Of a stretch of 64,000 nucleotides of DNA, positions 24,001 through 36,000 are shown piece after piece; position 1 is the stretch's first letter, and each line of letters begins with the position of its first letter. Source of the stretch: Sulfurospirillaceae bacterium (lineage in GTDB: Bacteria > Campylobacterota > Campylobacteria > Campylobacterales > Sulfurospirillaceae). A program made the position numbers. Location: the NCBI GenBank assembly GCA_033723415.1, contig JAWVXD010000001.1, forward strand, positions 384,001 through 448,000, written 5' to 3'.

Positions 24001-27000
24001 TTGTAATCAAATGCATCGATTGCATTGATAAATCTAGAGGCTTCTTCTTTGTTAAGAAAAGAGGGCAGTTTGACACCGCTTTTCCCGCTCAAACCGCCCC
24101 AATTTTTAAGCTCTATACCATATCTGTAGGCGTTGCCGTTTTCATCTTCATTTTGTTTATCTATATAACCAAAAAAGCCAAGTAGGGCGATACGGTAGTT
24201 TTTTTTACTCGCATCTGACAAACTTGAAGTCTCACTCGCTAAAAAATCACTCAGAAGCTCTTCATCGATCTCTTTCATAGAACCTGCACCAAATCGCATA
24301 AGATACTCATATAGCTTTTCAAGTGGACGGTAATAGACATGAACGCCACTCATACCTATATTTCTCGCTTCTTTTAAAAGATTTGTTAGAGTTTTTATAT
24401 CACTGGTACCTTTTGCTAGATTTTGGATAATGATTGCCAGTTTGTCTTTGTCCGTTACTTGTCGATTTGAAAGAGTCGTAACCTTGTTGCGTATAAATCT
24501 ACTAAGCCAAAAAAGATACGTTTGACTAAAAGTCGACTCAAGATCAAGAGAATACCTCATAATGTGCCTTTTTTTGATATTTTCATATTATAGCAAAATT
24601 TAGCTTAATTGTATTGGAAACTGTAATTTCCAAACTCTTATTTGGATTTATTGGCTTGAAACTTAAACGAGTGAGAAATTATGAGTTAAAACTTAAAAAG
24701 AGTATGTCATGATAGACATAAAACTCATTGATAAGTTTAAAAATGGCCGTACAACGGTTGAGAATGATATTTTACTAGATAGTACCTTGACAGCAACTGA
24801 AAAGATAGTCTATATGTACATCGAAATGCTATCGCACAAAGATAACTACTGTTATGCGACAAATATACAGATATCGGATCTTACCGGACAAACAATAGAC
24901 TCATTGAAACAAGCATTTAAAAAACTCAAAAAGAAAAAATACATTGTAGTCGATACGCTACAAACGCGCACACCATACAAGCGCCGTATATTCACGGAAA
25001 CACGTTTTTTACGTGCTTGGAATCAAAACACCCTACCCCGTGACTGTACGGTAAAAGAGCCAATAAAACGGCCTGACGAGCTAGATAGACAAGCAATCAG
25101 CAAGTCATTTCCAAAGTTTAGGAAATTCATAAAATTATATCTTACAGAAAATCAATTTAACATCACTACACCGGGCGAACTTCAAAACAAAACTATCATG
25201 ATCAAAAAGAACGGCTACTACACAAGCATTTGGGATGCGCGAGATCTCACAAAAGATGAAAGCGTAACGTTTGAAATGCTGATGTTCGATAAACGCGAAA
25301 CATTGCTAGATAATTTTTTCAATAAGGAGTGAAAATGCAAATCAAAAAAGGTGATATTATTGTCTATAAAGTCGGTAAGAATACAAAGCAAAGCAAAGTT
25401 AGAAAGATGAACTTTGATAATAGTGCTTCAATTTTTGCAAAAGAAAAGATCATACCTTGGGATAATATTTTAGGCGTATGCTCTACTATAAAGGATCATC
25501 ATGATAATCGAAATAAATGAGGAAGATTATGACTTTATCATGTATCTTATCAGAGAGGAAATATATGATAAAAAAGACAGTTTAGAGATACTTAAAGGCA
25601 AAGATCATTTTTATGGTAACGAAGATCCATATAGGATAAAGAGGATCAAAGAGTTAAAAAGAGAGATTAGAAAGATTATTGAACTAAGGAGAGCTTTAAA
25701 ACGAGGAATAAAATAGCTGTTTAACTCTCATATAGGGATACCGTAATTTCCCTATATGAGCGTTTTCATGTTACGGAATGAAAGCGCCTTTATATCAAAA
25801 TAAAGGCATAAAATGGGAATAACAAATTTTTTCAGCGGTTTATTTAGCAGCGGAGCCGCAAAAGTAGTCGATGCGATCGGCAATGCAGCAGATAAACTCT
25901 TTACAAGCGATGCAGAGCGTTTACAATTCCGTAATGATCTACAAAAAGAGCTAGACGATCTCAAAGTCAAACTCAATGATGCACTTGCGGCATACGACAA
26001 AGAGATCACGACACGCTGGCAAAGCGATAACGAACACATCATCACGCGCTTAGTGCGCCCTCTTTCGTTTATATACGTTCTCGTCATATTTTCATTTATG
26101 GCGCTACTTGACGGAAATATCGGAACATTTCATATCAACACGGCTTATTTGCCTATATTTCAAGGGTTACTTGGAACTATGGTTGTCGCCTACTTTGGCA
26201 GTCGTGGTATCGAAAAAGTATCAAACATAATAAAAAAATCAAATCAAGGAGATAACCAATGAGTACAAAAAAGCAAATAGATCAGATCGAAGAGATAGAA
26301 GATCTACCCGATCAACTTGATCCACCAAATCCAGAGATTGAAAAGGAAAAGCCGGAAGTTGAGATAAAAGAAACTTTGACACCGGATCTCGAAAAAAAGA
26401 TTGATGAGATTGAACATAAATTAGATCAATATCATGTTCAATCTATCAAAAAAGAATTTGAAGATCATTCAAAAGAAAAACTACAAAGATCAAAATCTAA
26501 ATTTATTTGGTTATTTGGTAGTATTTGTGTTGCTAGTATTGGCTTAATACTTATAAAAAACGCTAAAAACAGCGAAACGGAGGCTAATGGATGAGTAAAG
26601 AAGCGGTTGACGGAACGGATAATGGCGTAGAAAGGAATATTCCTTTTGAAGAAATGGGAAACAGTACGGAGGGCATTACCCGTACTGAGTTAATGGAAAA
26701 AACCGGCAAAGAACTAGCAAAAATGGCATTGCCTTATACAACTTGGAAAGAGAGTACATTATCAAAGTTATCTAAGCCAGAACTATGTGATATCATACTA
26801 ACAAAAGGAGCAAATAAAGAGCAGCAAGAGCCGAGAGCTAGAGCAGCAAGAGCCACGAGTGATAGTGAAGCAATTATCGAGACATTTCTTGCTATTGCAG
26901 AGAGTTTTAAGCTTAAAAGAGAAAAAGAGCCTTTAAATGCTACAGCCAAACAGATCTTTAAAAATAATGCCGTTAATTTAGTCGATAAAAAGGTTGAAGA

Positions 27001-33000: not shown

Positions 33001-36000
33001 ACACCCGTGAGAGAAATAAAAAATCTAAAAGCACAAACAAAAGAGCTTAAAAATTAATTTCGCGCCAGATCTTTACGTTCAAACTCAAAAACTATAAATT
33101 TACCCTTTCAGGATTAATTCTTTGAGGGTAAATTTAAACAATCTCAAAAATTATAGGTACTTGCCTATAAATAAAAAAAATTGATTGTAGAGCGTTTGAG
33201 AGCGTTTTTTTACTCAATAAAATCTCAACTTCAAAAATCTTTCACATATAAACAGCTTATGTACGGTGCTTTGATCCTAAATCAAAGCACTAAAAAGCAC
33301 GCGACAGCGTGTTTCATCCTAAGAGCAAAGAAAAACACAGCCGCGAGGCTGTTTCCTTATTGAGTCGCAGCGACGCGAAAATCAAATCAAGCCTAAATAA
33401 TATTATTTATCTAAGATATCTATCAAAAAAAGACTTTGTATATATATAGGAAACCTAGTGTCTCATAGACACCAGAAAGTAATGACCTAGTGTTTCATAG
33501 ACACTAGCTGTTGTCTCACAGACACTAGATAATAAAAAATTTATTAATTTTTTAAAAAATTAAGCTTGGTTTAAAAAGTTTAGTATTAGAATGGTGCTTT
33601 AAGTTTCAAAGCTACGAAGAGTAGCCGTGCAATGCTTGCAACAAAACACGGCTTACAAATACAACCTATTACGGAGGTTATAAATGTATTACAATCAAAT
33701 TATATCCACAAATCCTTTCAATATACTTAAATTTTCTTCAAAATCAAAATTAACCTTAAACAAAAAAAATGTTATAAAGTTTGAAAATAATATTTCAAAA
33801 TACCCTATTTATCGAAGTTTTGAAATGGTGTCAACTATAATTTCCAAACTTTTATTAATATGCTAGATAATAGAGAGTCCAAATAATATATTGGACTCTC
33901 TTCTTTGAATCTAAGTTTATTATTTTTTATCACAAAGGTTTGAATATAGTTTGCACAAATAATTCAAACCTTTTACAGCAAACTTATTACCTTGTTTTGA
34001 TGCTCTCTCAAATTCTTCTTTTGCTTTATACACATCTTTATCCACTCCAAACCCTTTGAAATACATATAACCAAGCATGTATTGAGCTTTTGAATAATTC
34101 TGTTTTGCCGCTTTTTGATAAAATCTAAAAGCAACATCATATTTTTTAGGTACACCATGTCCCAAATAATACATATTTCCCATATTATACTGTGATGGTG
34201 CATAGTTTTTCATAGCAGCTTTTAAGTATAATTCTACTGCTTTTTTGTAGTTGATTGGGACACCCCTTCCCATTTGATATACAATACCAAGATTATTCTC
34301 TGCAAGAACATAATTATGATCAGCTGATCTAGTATACCAATACAAGGCTAGTTGATAATCAACTTTCACACCCAGCCCTTTTGTATACATATAACCTAAG
34401 TTATATTCCGCTTTTGGATAGTTTTTTGTTGCAGCCTTTTTATATAATTTTATAGCAAGTGGATAATTTTGTTTTACGCCTTTTCCTATCATGTATAGAT
34501 TGCCTAAATTATACTCTGCTTCCGGCATATTATATCTAGCTGCTTCTTCATATAATTGAGCTGCCTTCATATAATCTTGCTTTACACCATATCCGTATTG
34601 ATATAATACACCAAGATTATTTAGTGCTTTTGTATCATGTTGAGCTGCAGCCTTTTTATACCACTTAACAGCTTTGGTATAATCAGTCTTGACTCCTTGT
34701 CCGTATGCGTACATGTATCCTAGATTATATTGCGCCTGATGCATATTGTTTTTGGCAGCTTTTTTGTATAGCTCTATAGCCTTGGCATAATCAACATCAA
34801 CGCCATGTCCATACTGGTACATAACACCTAAATTGTTCTGCGCCAAGGGATAATTTTGATCAGCTGCCCTTTTGTACCATTTAAAAGCATTTTTGAAGTC
34901 CGCAACACCTTTATTATAGTGTTCATAAGCATAACCCAGATTGTACTGGGCTTGAGCCAAGTTTTGTTTAGCTGCTAGAGTATAAAGAGAAAGGGCTTTA
35001 TCTTCATCTTTCTCAACACCTCTTCCCAACTCATACATTATTCCTAGATTATTTTGAGCCAATGGGTAATGTTGTGCAGCAGCTTTTTTATACCAATACA
35101 CTGCCTTCTCATAATTTACTTTTACCCCTTGTCCGTATGCATACATATACCCTAGATTATACTGAGCTTCGGGCATATTACTTTGGGCCGCTTTTTTATA
35201 CAAGTCTAAAGCTTTAGCATAGTCTTGTGCGACTCCTTTACCTCGTTGATACATATTCCCTAAATTATTTTGAGCCTTATCAAAGTTTTGATCGGCTGCT
35301 TTTTTATACCATCTGAGAGCTTCTTGATAATCAACTGAAGTGCCATCACCTTTTTCATAAATATAAGCTAGATTATATTGTGCCTGAGGCATATTTTGTT
35401 CAGCTGCATGCTTATAGTATTCTATTGCTTTTGAATAGTCTATATCTACACCGTTGCCAAATTGATACATAGTACCTAGGATATACCAAGCATTTGCATT
35501 ATTATCTTGAATTGCTGCTTGTTTAAAGTACTTTAGGGCTTGTTCGTACTTGCCTTGGTCATAGTAGTTAATCGCAGTATTAAAAACTTTGCTATGTGTC
35601 ATGATTTGACCTGTTTTTGGCTGAGATGTAGCACACCCGCTAAATAAAACTATAGCAATTGTCATACTAATTTGAACAAGAATCTTTCTCATATCTATTC
35701 CTTATAAGTTTAGTTTTTATTTTAGAATTTAAACAAAATCTCTACTCACCAAAGATGATAACCTCATAGCTGTCTCTTTTTACTATAGGATTTTCAACGG
35801 TATCGTTGCCTTTTTTATTAAATTTGTTCAATTGTTCTTTCAAATCATCTATAGTTTCTTCATACTCTTTAAGCTTATCTTTGAGTTGGATTATAATATC
35901 CACACCTGCCAAGTTGACTCCAAGATCACGAGTAAGTCGCTGTATCATTTTGATTTTATCAATATCCTTTTGAGAAAAGAGTCGCATCTTTCCATCTGTT

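Follow-up and report, generated by a model that had tools for sequence, protein, structure and literature searches.

Mobile elements that lack an integrase and exploit host Xer recombination (IMEXs), such as TLC-phi and the gonococcal genetic island, are known from XerCD hosts and carry one degenerate arm (PMC5357621). In the sections of that account devoted to these two elements, the attP is double-stranded, with one good Xer arm, a homologous centre and a divergent second arm, and once the element is integrated, one end carries a functional dif and the opposite end a crippled one. Use of the host XerC/XerD has also been proposed for the NO16-like “Asemoviridae” vibriophages and the PhiCjT23-like Flavobacterium prophages, described in the relevant parts of their reports as small, tailless, membrane-containing and integrase-less, with dif-like flanks (PMC9966536, PMC9719478). 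The Legionella element LME-1 is reported to integrate at dif in a host whose Xer system has a single recombinase, XerL (PMC9765430). Corticoviridae (PM2) and PM2-like prophages of aquatic bacteria, as outlined in PMC1950889, have circular genomes of ~9-10 kb that encode a double jelly-roll (DJR) capsid protein (MCP), a packaging ATPase and numerous small membrane proteins, and their modules for replication, lysis and integration can be exchanged. Finally, DJR elements of 7.4-10.7 kb with a conserved ATPase-MCP pair, HTH proteins and holins were described from Sulfurimonas MAGs (Commun Biol 2024, PMC11531552); the portions of that account dealing with them mention neither dif, nor Xer, nor an integration site, and do not cover Sulfurospirillum.

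We analysed a window of 64,000 nucleotides from a Sulfurospirillaceae genome (contig JAWVXD010000001.1, positions 384,001 to 448,000), in which a 9.2-kb element adjoins the host xerH gene. It probably represents the integrated form of a ~9.2-kb circular, membrane-containing, tailless DJR phage (Varidnaviria, PM2/PRD1/STIV-like) that has no recombinase and uses the XerH of its host. The attP layout and the outcome of integration predicted for it are those given for TLC-phi and the gonococcal genetic island, but the host system is a single recombinase, XerH with difH, and the element is read as an icosahedral DJR phage, neither a filamentous satellite phage nor a conjugation island. A XafT-like activation factor was not identifiable in it. 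The traits listed above for the NO16-like and PhiCjT23-like phages are shared as well, whereas those phages occur in XerCD hosts (Vibrio, Flavobacterium), PhiCjT23 being a ssDNA phage, and members of the present lineage occur in Campylobacterota and use either difH/XerH or classical dif/XerCD. As with LME-1, a single-recombinase system would be targeted, although LME-1 is described as relying on XerL and another site and not as a DJR phage, and the dif-xer gap given for Legionella exceeds 400 kb, against 50 bp between difH and xerH in the window. The element resembles the PM2-like group in genome size, circularity (seen here in relatives), packaging ATPase, small membrane proteins, modular make-up and a DJR MCP whose similarity to Pfam P2_C/P2_N is weak; those prophages carry integrases or transposase fragments, unlike the window element, in which, as a further difference, no RCR Rep was found, only a wHTH protein. 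The Sulfurimonas elements come from the same host phylum and agree with it in size and gene content; two contigs related to ours, L062 and L063, derive from Sulfurimonas MAGs and may overlap with that published set.

The host xerH gene (23505..24560, minus strand) codes for a single Xer tyrosine recombinase of 351 aa, recognised by Pfam (Phage_int_SAM_6, 5.9e-56; Phage_integrase, 1e-31) and by a full-length phmmer match to H. pylori XerH 5JJV/5JK0 (E 1.6e-100). A XerH match is present in 60 of 61 genomes of the family, 55 of them at E <= 1e-100; the one XerH-like copy in 37 of 41 genomes counted in an earlier note on this DNA differs only by the sample. Two further tyrosine recombinases, on contigs C6 and C3 of the host genome, could in principle act on the element in trans. 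Upstream of xerH, at a distance of 50 bp, lies a full palindromic site (24611..24636, plus strand) made of a left arm GTATTGGAAAC (24611-24621), a centre TGTAAT (24622-27) and a right arm TTCCAAACT (24628-36). Judged from its sequence and position, this is plainly difH, near the replication terminus. One symmetric G/A change per arm separates it from the difH published for Arcobacter, C. concisus and Nitratiruptor (GTATTGAAAAC TATAAT TTTTCAAA). Cumulative G-C along the 461-kb contig peaks at 415 kb (398 kb without the element) and about 10 kb or less separates the site, at 408.6 kb, from the GC-skew maximum; in the complete genome of the closest congener, G011, the same locus is at 52% of the chromosome from dnaA. 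A site with centre TATAAT adjoins xerH in 12 of the 30 loci examined, the window's own included, and hence the palindrome said to lie upstream of xerH in relatives was recovered at 11 of their 29 loci. The dif reading of the earlier note therefore holds, but its view that the element pins down the difH of Sulfurospirillaceae is overstated, since the motif was already in print in 2009 for other Campylobacterota and another genus of the family has a candidate difH with different arms, 21-32 kb from xerH in four of five complete genomes.

This full site corresponds to attL, in which the left part is taken to be chromosomal and everything from the right arm on to stem from the element; the adjacent flank CTCTTATTTGG... 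is common only to the G011 element. At the other end, attR (33825..33856, plus strand) consists of a degenerate arm ATGGTGTCAAC on the element side (33825-35), a centre TATAAT (33836-41), a right arm TTCCAAACT (33842-50) and a chromosomal flank TTTATT. Its centre is the dif centre of all 11 relatives with the site, and its right flank is similar to the post-dif flank of the element-free congeners L011 and L014. The bracketing by a full and a partial site claimed previously was thus recovered, the partial copy AAC-TATAAT-TTCCAAACT-TTTATT at 33833-33856 being identical to 24619-24642 at 22 of 24 positions. When a 27-mer of the site was searched in the 2.43-Mb assembly at <=6 mismatches, it was found at the two element ends and at one more place, an unrelated 6-mismatch palindrome within a coding region of contig C6. 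The element accordingly spans 24611-33856, with site centres 9,214 bp apart, and the block of same-strand genes reported there stands at about 20 plus-strand ORFs between the full site and the partial copy. None of 20 element ORFs scanned against Pfam and PHROGs matches a recombinase family, in agreement with the lack of an integrase noted before; integrase matches are confined to xerH, outside the element, and the largest element ORF left out of the scan is a minus-strand one of 129 aa.

The DJR fold of the MCP (28042..29001, plus strand, 319 aa) is firmly predicted. An AF2 model from 34 sequences reaches pLDDT 92.2 and pTM 0.87, and Foldseek matches it over its whole length to P3 of PRD1/PR772 (E 3e-21, TMq 0.72-0.76), to the STIV MCP (TM 0.74), to P2 of PM2 (TMt 0.77) and to the PBCV-1 capsid protein; the summary TM range for the PRD1/PR772, STIV and PM2 coat proteins is 0.66-0.76. 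The earlier capsid assignment, based on a model of pLDDT 67 and TM 0.3, is thereby strengthened (pLDDT 92, TM 0.72-0.76). The Pfam P2_C match of the window protein (5.7e-5, 23.5 bits) falls below the cut-off of 25 bits, which the relatives L064, L046 and L042 exceed. It is longer than the 269-aa coat protein of PM2 and, by Foldseek, resembles PRD1 P3 and the STIV MCP no less than it does PM2.

Just upstream of the MCP gene, a genome-packaging ATPase of FtsK/HerA type (27129..27785, plus strand, 218 aa) again matches phrog_2666 (5.6e-22), as well as HerA and, over its full length, the STIV2 B204 packaging NTPase (phmmer 2.5e-6); it is 90% identical to its G011 counterpart, with dN/dS 0.07. It is followed by a small membrane protein (27715..27906, plus, 63 aa) with a TM-like segment at residues 37-55 and a counterpart in G011. 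The first gene of the element (24709..25332, plus) codes for a 207-aa wHTH protein (Pfam HTH_36, 2.8e-8; PHROG replication-initiation families, 4e-9 to 1e-5; 79% aa identity, pN 0.15 and pS 0.67 against G011). It had been called a replication initiator; the HTH_36 and PHROG matches were retrieved, but the latter are weak and it is better described as a wHTH protein, candidate initiator or regulator. Two small ORFs of 63 and 71 aa follow (25329..25716, plus), with no family match in Pfam or PHROGs, the second being conserved in G011 (63% aa identity). The claim of a holin was reproduced: a 149-aa membrane protein (25813..26262, plus), hydrophobic at residues 76-105, matches phrog_3427 (holin, 8.8e-14), and its counterparts in relatives match Pfam GTA_holin_3TM. 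Next come proteins of 111 and 187 aa with one C-terminal membrane helix each by Kyte-Doolittle scan (26259..27154, plus), the larger present in every relative tested (38-59% identity).

Downstream of the MCP gene are encoded three small Gly/Ser/Ala-rich proteins of 101, 128 and 104 aa with hydrophobic C-termini (29003..30009, plus). All are kept in G011, a TM-like segment is scored only in the first, and by analogy with PRD1 and PM2 they may be virion membrane proteins; at least six small element proteins have single hydrophobic helices in the Kyte-Doolittle scan. A 184-aa protein (30006..30560, plus; AF2 pLDDT 80.6, pTM 0.46), kept in relatives, is modelled as two beta-sandwiches and is a candidate vertex (penton/spike) protein. 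The virion-type module further includes, besides the holin-like protein, a fibre-like protein of 126 aa (phrog_11355 “tail fiber”, 2.5e-12) that lies with a 103-aa ORF (30562..31253, plus) in the element's most divergent part (39% and 19% aa identity to G011). The conserved 177-aa protein that follows (31246..31779, plus; phrog_3108, function unknown, 3.6e-23) is 46-55% identical in all relatives, with dN/dS 0.07; judging from where its gene lies in the order and from a GYGIFQ-like motif, it is a candidate cell-wall hydrolase. Two small proteins of 126 and 56 aa with hydrophobic C-termini (31776..32414, plus) and a 132-aa lipoprotein-like protein with an N-terminal hydrophobic signal peptide ending FFGC (32659..33057, plus; 83% aa identity to G011, dN/dS 0.09) complete the set. 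A plasmid-like or defence island that merely includes a jelly-roll protein might be considered, given that the ATPase's Pfam matches are to generic P-loop families and that generic cupins score as high as or higher than the vertex matches in VIA-align (N-terminal domain, PR772 chain 6q5u_O, Z 7.4; C-terminal domain, PM2 spike P1, Z 7.9, and STIV A223, Z 7.4). This is very improbable in view of the high-confidence, whole-length capsid model, while the order ATPase-MCP-small membrane protein, the holin and the circular relatives of 8.6-9 kb all fit known DJR phages.

The leader between att and the first gene (24637..24708, plus) carries AACTTAAAC(GAG) motifs that are conserved: G011 and L046 have them 5' of the first gene, and L040, L047, L050 and G272 next to attP. 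They could serve as operator or ori. A CTTAAAC motif is common to this leader and to a non-coding stretch at 32420..32658, where the repeat search found a recurring TTAAGTTTCAAA..AACCTTAAAC unit together with an inverted repeat of 18 nt. The same search detected a terminator-like hairpin after the lipoprotein-like gene (33095-33136) and a palindrome of 21-23 nt (CTAGTGTCTCATAGACACTAG-like) present three times at 33453..33528, a candidate operator or iteron array with a G011 counterpart (33487-33531 versus L031 16156-16200). Finally, a 60-aa ORF (33684..33866, plus) that contains an inverted repeat and an inverted half-site-like AGTTTGAAAAT at 33779-33789 is probably not a gene: against G011 its pN (0.235) is close to its pS (0.226), pS being far higher in the other ORFs compared (0.37-0.80), and it likely represents a conserved non-coding approach to attR.

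Related elements lie at dif sites in several hosts. G011 harbors a syntenic copy at the same site (67-79% nucleotide identity), with a full difH as attL and cagTTGGCAAC-TATAAT-TTCCAAACT as attR. In L061, a Campylobacteraceae MAG whose XerH and MCP are 53% and 40% identical to those of the window, the relative is again beside xerH, between a full difH AGTATTGAAAAC-TACACT-TTTCAAACT and a half copy 9,231 bp away with the same unusual centre TACACT. A full classical dif is present in L046 (TTTCAAGAGAA-TATATA-TTATGTTAACC, almost identical to the one published for Sulfurimonas denitrificans; the half copy lies at a distance of 9,792 bp) and in G272, a complete genome of another family, where the XerC arm and centre are copied 9,503 bp away and the element is at 50.7-51% of the chromosome from dnaA. 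All five integrated elements have the full dif on the side of the first (rep) gene and the half dif on the far side, and none of 78 ORFs in the four others matches a recombinase. Three metagenome contigs of 8.6-9.0 kb are circular, as indicated by terminal overlaps of 125-127 bp. In L040, L047 and L050/L062, TTTCAAGAGAA-TTTACA with a degenerate XerD arm after it is found ~200 bp upstream of the rep-like gene, which is the junction predicted from the G272 prophage ends; L040, L047, L050 and G272 thus show exactly the layout described for TLC-phi and the gonococcal island in the sections cited above, a good XerC arm with a degenerate XerD arm. L036 and L042, the two closest metagenomic relatives, encode a serine recombinase; reliance on Xer is not uniform in the family. 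The G047 copy also speaks against a general use of dif: its neighbour is an aldehyde-oxidoreductase gene, the dif-like site there is no more than a degenerate one, and xerH is on a different contig.

Borrowing of the host Xer recombinase is the most likely explanation of these sequences, because the element encodes no integrase and is located precisely at dif, and its relatives occupy whichever dif their host uses. The hijacking proposed in the earlier note gains weight from five integrated elements at two unrelated dif types and from circular relatives with a dif-mimicking attP. An unrecognised recombinase of the element, for example the wHTH “rep” or another ORF, could instead target a dif-like sequence with XerH uninvolved: roughly half of the ORFs could be placed in no family, and the wHTH gene adjoins attP in all relatives. 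Such an enzyme seems quite improbable, as no ORF scanned shows signs of a tyrosine or serine recombinase, and those left unassigned reach at most 187 aa. Moreover, among members of a single tight clade (100/100 support) the arm retained in attP is that of XerC in L040, L047, L050 and G272 but that of XerD in L046, and other relatives use difH, unrelated in sequence to classical dif. A private enzyme would need re-targeting each time to the exact dif of the host, which borrowing of the host enzyme explains at once.

The persistence of the window copy bears on whether it is still mobile. The earlier note feared a decaying remnant at one locus in two congeners; the shared locus stands, but all ORFs are intact in both, and with pS near saturation (0.37-0.80) and pN of 0.07-0.25 in the ATPase, MCP, rep, 177-aa protein and lipoprotein, the compared sequences indicate purifying selection and a copy that is not decaying. 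Amino acid identities of 79% for XerH, 90% for the ATPase and 70% for the MCP make the element about as diverged as the flanking host genes, and with the common locus this means that the window/G011 pair alone does not distinguish one old vertical insertion from repeated integration. An insertion fixed beside xerH in the G000/G011 ancestor, now immobile and kept for host-useful genes, would fit the conserved locus and gene order. It would also fit the f1 genomes sampled in the order-level search, where a capsid match was found only in G000, G011 and G047 (a broken copy, at another locus), and the failure to find a difH-type circle in public collections. We consider it unlikely: the structural genes are all intact, and an unused 20-gene virion module is hard to reconcile with purifying selection at near-saturated synonymous sites. 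The two congeners also have different right flanks. Very distant relatives lie at dif in other families and have circular close kin, which argues for a lineage that, taken as a whole, moves and targets dif.

Under the preferred reading, a phage borrowing host XerH, attP would be a dif mimic just 5' of the first gene, with a degenerate arm, a centre that matches the one in the host dif, and one arm that XerH should bind well. Host XerH would synapse it with the chromosomal difH beside xerH and strands would be exchanged at the 6-bp centre, with XerH as the presumed catalyst and the order of exchange likewise presumed. The arm of the window attP, as reconstructed, is poor, agreeing with the left arm of dif at about 6 of 12 positions. 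In H. pylori, the portion of PMC5241119 on this step proposes that the subunits of XerH sitting on the left arm carry out the first exchange and that FtsK is required; the degenerate left arm of attP sits awkwardly with this left-arm-first proposal. The window copy may still be able to excise and make virions, although the crippled attR expected on the far side should limit excision. A literature search found no earlier XerH-exploiting mobile element, and the claim of a first XerH IMEX stands to that extent, but DJR phages using XerCD and a single-recombinase IMEX in Legionella were already in print, and the XerH case would be what is new here. On the xerH/rep side, integration would leave a complete difH as attL, through which the host would keep dimer resolution.

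The element at 24611-33856 contains about 20 tightly packed plus-strand ORFs, which run from 24709 to about 33060 and are followed by about 800 bases of non-coding DNA with repeats. The structure of its 319-aa major capsid protein (MCP) was predicted with AlphaFold2 from an alignment of 34 homologues found by search, several of them lying on contigs of 8.7-9.8 kb, and reached a pLDDT of 92.2 and a pTM of 0.87, all five models being at 90 or above. Compared with the PDB by Foldseek, the model matches PRD1/PR772 P3 (E 3e-21, TMq 0.72-0.76), the STIV MCP (TM 0.74) and PM2 P2 (TMt 0.77), with PBCV-1 and iridovirus MCPs scoring lower. 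The double jelly-roll (DJR) capsid that the earlier note had called from a model of four sequences (pLDDT 67, TM about 0.3) is thus recovered with a far better model (pLDDT 92.2, TMq 0.72-0.76), and this predicted fold identifies the element as the genome of a DJR-capsid phage. The Pfam P2_C domain scores 23.5 bits in the window MCP, for a cut-off of 25, and lies above it in three relatives (L064, 28.5 bits; L046, 27.2; L042, 25.1).

The other genes of the element include a FtsK/HerA-type packaging ATPase, a P-loop protein of 218 aa that aligns end to end with the genome-packaging NTPase B204 of STIV2 (2.5e-6) and also matches HerA and phrog_2666 (5.6e-22); 257 bp separate the end of its gene from the MCP gene downstream, and a holin-like protein is encoded near both. 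At least six small proteins have one hydrophobic helix, an indirect sign of a possible internal membrane in the putative icosahedral virion, and a lipoprotein and a fibre-like protein (phrog_11355) are also encoded. A widely conserved 177-aa protein (phrog_3108) is, as a guess, a candidate cell-wall hydrolase. Downstream of the membrane-protein genes, a 184-aa protein, a candidate for the penton or vertex protein, has a predicted fold of two beta-sandwiches. It aligns with a PR772 chain (6q5u_O), the STIV turret A223 and the PM2 spike P1 at Z 7.4-7.9, generic cupins scoring equally. The 207-aa product of the first gene is a winged helix-turn-helix protein (wHTH, HTH_36) with weak matches to phage replication-initiator PHROGs. 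No rolling-circle Rep (P12-like) or other match to a rolling-circle replication family was found among the element ORFs in Pfam and PHROGs, and the element is therefore not a corticovirus in the strict sense (PM2). A scan of 23000-35000 against Rfam returned nothing at E <= 0.1.

Adjacent to the element lies the gene of the host XerH (23505-24560, minus strand, 351 aa), which was assigned from Pfam and from its match to the Helicobacter pylori enzyme. It harbors the XerH-specific N-terminal domain (Phage_int_SAM_6, 5.9e-56, 188.6 bits) and a catalytic domain (1e-31), and H. pylori XerH (5JJV/5JK0) aligns with it over its full length (E 1.6e-100, residues 11-349). The palindrome GTATTGGAAAC-TGTAAT-TTCCAAACT is located at 24611-24636, 50 bp upstream of the xerH start codon, and a half copy, ATGGTGTCAAC-TATAAT-TTCCAAACT-TTTATT, is found in the sequence at 33825-33856. 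The two share 22 of 24 positions (24619-24642 against 33833-33856), their centres are 9,214 bp apart, and they are the sole sites within 6 mismatches in the 2.43-Mb assembly, besides a palindrome inside a coding region of contig C6. The published difH of Arcobacter butzleri, Campylobacter concisus and Nitratiruptor is GTATTGAAAAC-TATAAT-TTTTCAAA, and in these species it usually lies tens to hundreds of bases from xerH (Carnoy and Roten, PMC2731167). With respect to the published consensus TGAAAAC---A-TTTTCAAA, the window site has a single A-to-G change in each arm and otherwise matches; since the two changes are symmetric, the palindrome is preserved. Judged by its sequence, the window palindrome is difH, and we refer to the full site as attL and to the half copy as attR.

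No tyrosine or serine recombinase, transposase or invertase family was found with Pfam and PHROGs in any of the 20 scanned ORFs of the element, a set that takes in every ORF of the block longer than a 129-aa minus-strand ORF overlapping these genes. The earlier note was accurate on the gene block, its coordinates and its two bracketing sites, and right that the block encodes no integrase. In the whole window genome, a PF00589 search gave three tyrosine recombinases, namely XerH, a 302-aa ORF and a match in a 426-aa open frame, the last two on other contigs (C6 about 118217-119603, equivalent to locus L069 6218-7603, and C3:192159-192731); the XerH query matches XerH alone. The 302-aa gene on C6 comes after an 89-aa Cys-rich ORF, and the C6 palindrome, AATTTGGAAAT-GACAAT-TTCCAATT, with 6 mismatches, lies about 450 bp upstream of it. 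This palindrome was considered as a second dif and rejected, as it falls within a coding region, at the 3' end of an ORF of 490 aa, and the integrase gene that follows it is an unrelated one.

The position of difH fits a replication terminus. Cumulative G-C along the 461-kb contig rises for 400 kb and turns at 415 kb, or at 398 kb once the element is removed; difH is at 408.6 kb, the skew maximum thus being within about 10 kb. In the complete genome of the closest congener (G011), where dnaA is at base 413, the orthologous locus is found 52% of the way along the chromosome. A site with the centre TATAAT adjoins xerH in 12 of the 30 xerH loci of the family that were fetched, including that of the window, and no site within 6 mismatches was found 1.5 kb on each side of xerH in the remaining 18, which belong mostly to another genus. 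In five complete genomes of that other genus, g4 (G017, G021, G022, G025 and G019), there is a candidate difH with A-type arms (TATTGAAAAC-TGTAAT-TTTCAAAG or a close variant, TATTGAAAAC-TGTAAT/TAAAAT-TTTCAAA); its distance from xerH is 21-32 kb in four of the five and 294 kb in the fifth, so that the tight linkage of xerH and dif is lost in g4. The suggestion that the site is the difH of the Sulfurospirillaceae consequently holds for only part of the family. For G025, the idea that the 21 kb separating xerH from the candidate dif are an array of integrative mobile elements exploiting Xer (IMEXs) was considered and rejected: large ORFs and no half-sites are found there.

Four integrated relatives are bracketed in the same way. 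In G011, whose XerH is 79% identical to that of the window, a syntenic element with every ORF intact occupies the same place, with 67-79% nucleotide identity in the aligned parts. Its attL, GTATTGGAAAC-TATAAT-TTCCAAACT, continues into the CTCTTATTTGG flank that the window also has, and in its attR, cagTTGGCAAC-TATAAT-TTCCAAACT, the element-side arm is nearer to a real arm than that of the window. The second case is a 22.8-kb contig of a Campylobacteraceae MAG (L061), where a xerH 53% identical to that of the window is followed by AGTATTGAAAAC-TACACT-TTTCAAACT, with a half copy, ..TTC-TACACT-TTTCAAAT, 9,231 bp from this full difH and between them an element whose MCP is 40% identical to the window MCP. 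Both L061 copies have the unusual centre TACACT, an identity needed for strand exchange inside the centre. A further sequence resembling a half-site, GTTTTGAAAAC-TATATA-AAC, occurs in L061 between xerH and the full difH (about 6285-6310), some 280 bp from the latter, and may be the scar of an earlier insertion. L061 also encodes a GNAT acetyltransferase (11570-12043, 3.6e-8), which the window element does not; such an enzyme is reported as conserved in Autolykiviridae and Corticoviridae in a paper on Sulfurimonas phages (PMC11531552).

The two other cases lie at dif sites of the classical type. In a 62.7-kb metagenome contig (L046), a relative of the element is inserted between a TetR gene and a response-regulator gene and is bracketed by TTTCAAGAGAA-TATATA-TTATGTTAACC and ..TTGTT-TATATA-TTATGTTAACC, 9,792 bp apart; compared with the classical dif published for Sulfurimonas denitrificans, TTTCAATAGAA-TTTACA-TTATGTTAACC, the full site has 3 differences in 28 positions. 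In a complete genome from another family of the order (G272), a relative occupies 50.7-51% of the chromosome counted from dnaA. It is flanked by a full classical dif and, 9,503 bp away, by a half copy that has kept the XerC arm and the centre but has a degenerate XerD arm. All integrated cases share one polarity, with the complete dif at the first-gene end and the crippled copy at the opposite end. In the MCP and ATPase trees all classical-dif elements form one clade (100/100 and 100/98), the elements of the window and G011 group as a pair, and a long branch leads to L061. Within the classical-dif clade, L046 retains the XerD arm and its neighbours the XerC arm.

The five insertion sites have a single common feature, the dif of the host, which comes in two unrelated sequence types served by different enzymes, and the elements carry a matching dif mimic and no enzyme of their own: recombinase families were also absent from the 78 ORFs of the four integrated relatives. 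Borrowing of the host Xer machinery, the most likely reading, would explain these insertions directly, whereas a private recombinase would need to have been re-aimed repeatedly at exactly the dif of each host. The centre of the window attL is TGTAAT, and that of attR and of the dif sites of all 11 relatives is TATAAT. If the G of attL came from attP, the crossover would have occurred at the left edge of the centre, which would fit a single strand-exchange pair followed by replication; a later point mutation would explain this G equally well, and we give the crossover position little weight.

Free forms of related elements are found among metagenome contigs. Those of L040 (8,700 nt), L042 (8,587 nt) and L050 (9,011 nt) have terminal overlaps of 125-127 nt and therefore represent circles. 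In L040, L047, L050 and L062, the twin of L050, TTTCAAGAGAA-TTTACA and an adjoining degenerate XerD arm lie about 200 bp upstream of the wHTH gene. The CCTTAAAC..TTAAAC motif that ends the G272 prophage also flanks this site, which corresponds to the attP expected when the two ends of that prophage are joined. In L047, a Sulfurimonas MAG contig of 10,633 nt (the same record as L063), positions 1-1547 and 9085-10633 show 89.6% identity over about 1,550 nt, with an attP-type site at each contig end; L047 is either one circular genome whose assembly combined two strain variants or two related elements in tandem. For the difH-type element no free form was found: a search of IMG/VR with the capsid alignment gave no relative, the att pattern AACTRTAATTTCCAAACTYTTATT has no exact match in IMG/VR, and the sole public run with this stretch, which may be the source of the assembly, consists of contigs, which cannot show rare junctions, one of them spanning the stretch and none joining the element ends. 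A folded single-stranded attP of the CTX type was considered and discarded, as the stem of the inverted repeat 33776-33795 / 33833-33852 would comprise the centre and right arm and no whole site.

The integration module varies among these phages. In a scan of five contigs covering 77 of their 92 ORFs of at least 70 aa (the other 15 being minus-strand frames overlapping longer ORFs), no recombinase was found among the scanned ORFs of L040, L047 and L050. A small serine recombinase (Pfam Resolvase, 1e-31 and 7e-36) is present in L036 (2299-2967) and L042 (1489-2190), the metagenomic relatives nearest to the window element by MCP (59% and 51% identity), and no dif-like site was found within the thresholds in either of them. 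Within the family, then, one integration module can take the place of another.

The element had also been suspected of being a decaying remnant. Synonymous sites have diverged almost to saturation between the window and G011 (pS 0.37-0.80), and pN is low in core genes (ATPase 0.07, lipoprotein 0.09, wHTH protein 0.15, 177-aa protein 0.17, MCP 0.22), and all genes are intact in both, which argues against decay. This pattern fits both an old, vertically inherited prophage still under selection and repeated infection. An exception is the last "gene", of 60 aa (33684-33866), where pN is about equal to an unusually low pS (0.23) and which is therefore better read as conserved non-coding DNA leading to attR. 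The chromosomal neighbours of the element encode a 953-aa pentapeptide-repeat-like protein with a C-terminal membrane region (20617-23478, plus strand) and a 590-aa protein with 14 Sel1 repeats (33920-35692, minus strand). The right flank in G011 has different genes until synteny returns at a 123-aa ORF, indicating that the terminus region is variable.

The capsid profile detects five of the 401 genomes sampled from the order, namely the window genome, G011, G047, G272 and, weakly, G150. The G047 copy (L065 7450-12257, C23; L066, C16) is an exception to the dif rule. It adjoins an aldehyde:ferredoxin oxidoreductase gene on another contig than xerH and has only a degenerate dif-like site, TTGTTGAAAAC-TGTAAT-TTTCACAGTT, no window-type difH being found within 3 mismatches anywhere in the assembly. 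Unrelated DNA carrying repeated TTACATGTAAA motifs interrupts its MCP gene at about residue 261, shortly before the end of the contig, and the element looks like a broken copy. A serine recombinase, guessed from its nearest relative L036, is absent from it.

With a good arm, a matched centre and a bad arm, these elements share the layout of two reviewed IMEXs of XerCD hosts, TLC-phi and the gonococcal island (PMC5357621). Use of XerCD at dif has been proposed for other tailless, membrane-containing phages, the NO16-like vibriophages (PMC9966536) and the PhiCjT23-like prophages of Flavobacterium (PMC9719478), and LME-1 is an IMEX using a single recombinase, XerL (PMC9765430). DJR elements have been described in Sulfurimonas MAGs in a paper whose section 8 makes no mention of dif or Xer (PMC11531552). 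No XerH-exploiting element is described in the XerH/difH literature searched, which comprised papers outside subscription, among them a 2017 review, the 2016 paper on the XerH structure, a TLC-phi preprint and a Tn7 paper. The point added to the printed record would be that one phage lineage switches between two Xer systems. We find it reasonably likely that a single Campylobacterota lineage of small DJR phages switches between XerH/difH and XerC/XerD/dif hosts by exchanging a dif-mimic attP of ~28 bp upstream of the first gene, that some members take up a serine recombinase, that the window element is the first described XerH IMEX, and that a degenerate arm, a host-matched centre and a good arm are a general solution for one- and two-recombinase Xer systems.

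Knowledge of IMEXs comes almost entirely from XerCD hosts, and XerH is the enzyme of Helicobacter, Campylobacter, Arcobacter, Sulfurospirillum and their kin. The natural attP/difH pair offers a substrate for how a homotetrameric Xer enzyme treats an asymmetric site with a bad arm, and lets FtsK bypass be asked as well. Half-dif repeats around the terminus also provide a route to find small tailless prophages and to annotate dif sites. If the proposed switching is true, one phage lineage would use two non-homologous dimer-resolution machines, the single XerH at difH and XerC/XerD at the classical dif. The same phage backbone occurs with an attP of the difH type, with one of the dif type that retains one or the other arm, or with a serine recombinase, and this family pattern is a clean natural experiment on the retargeting of phage integration.
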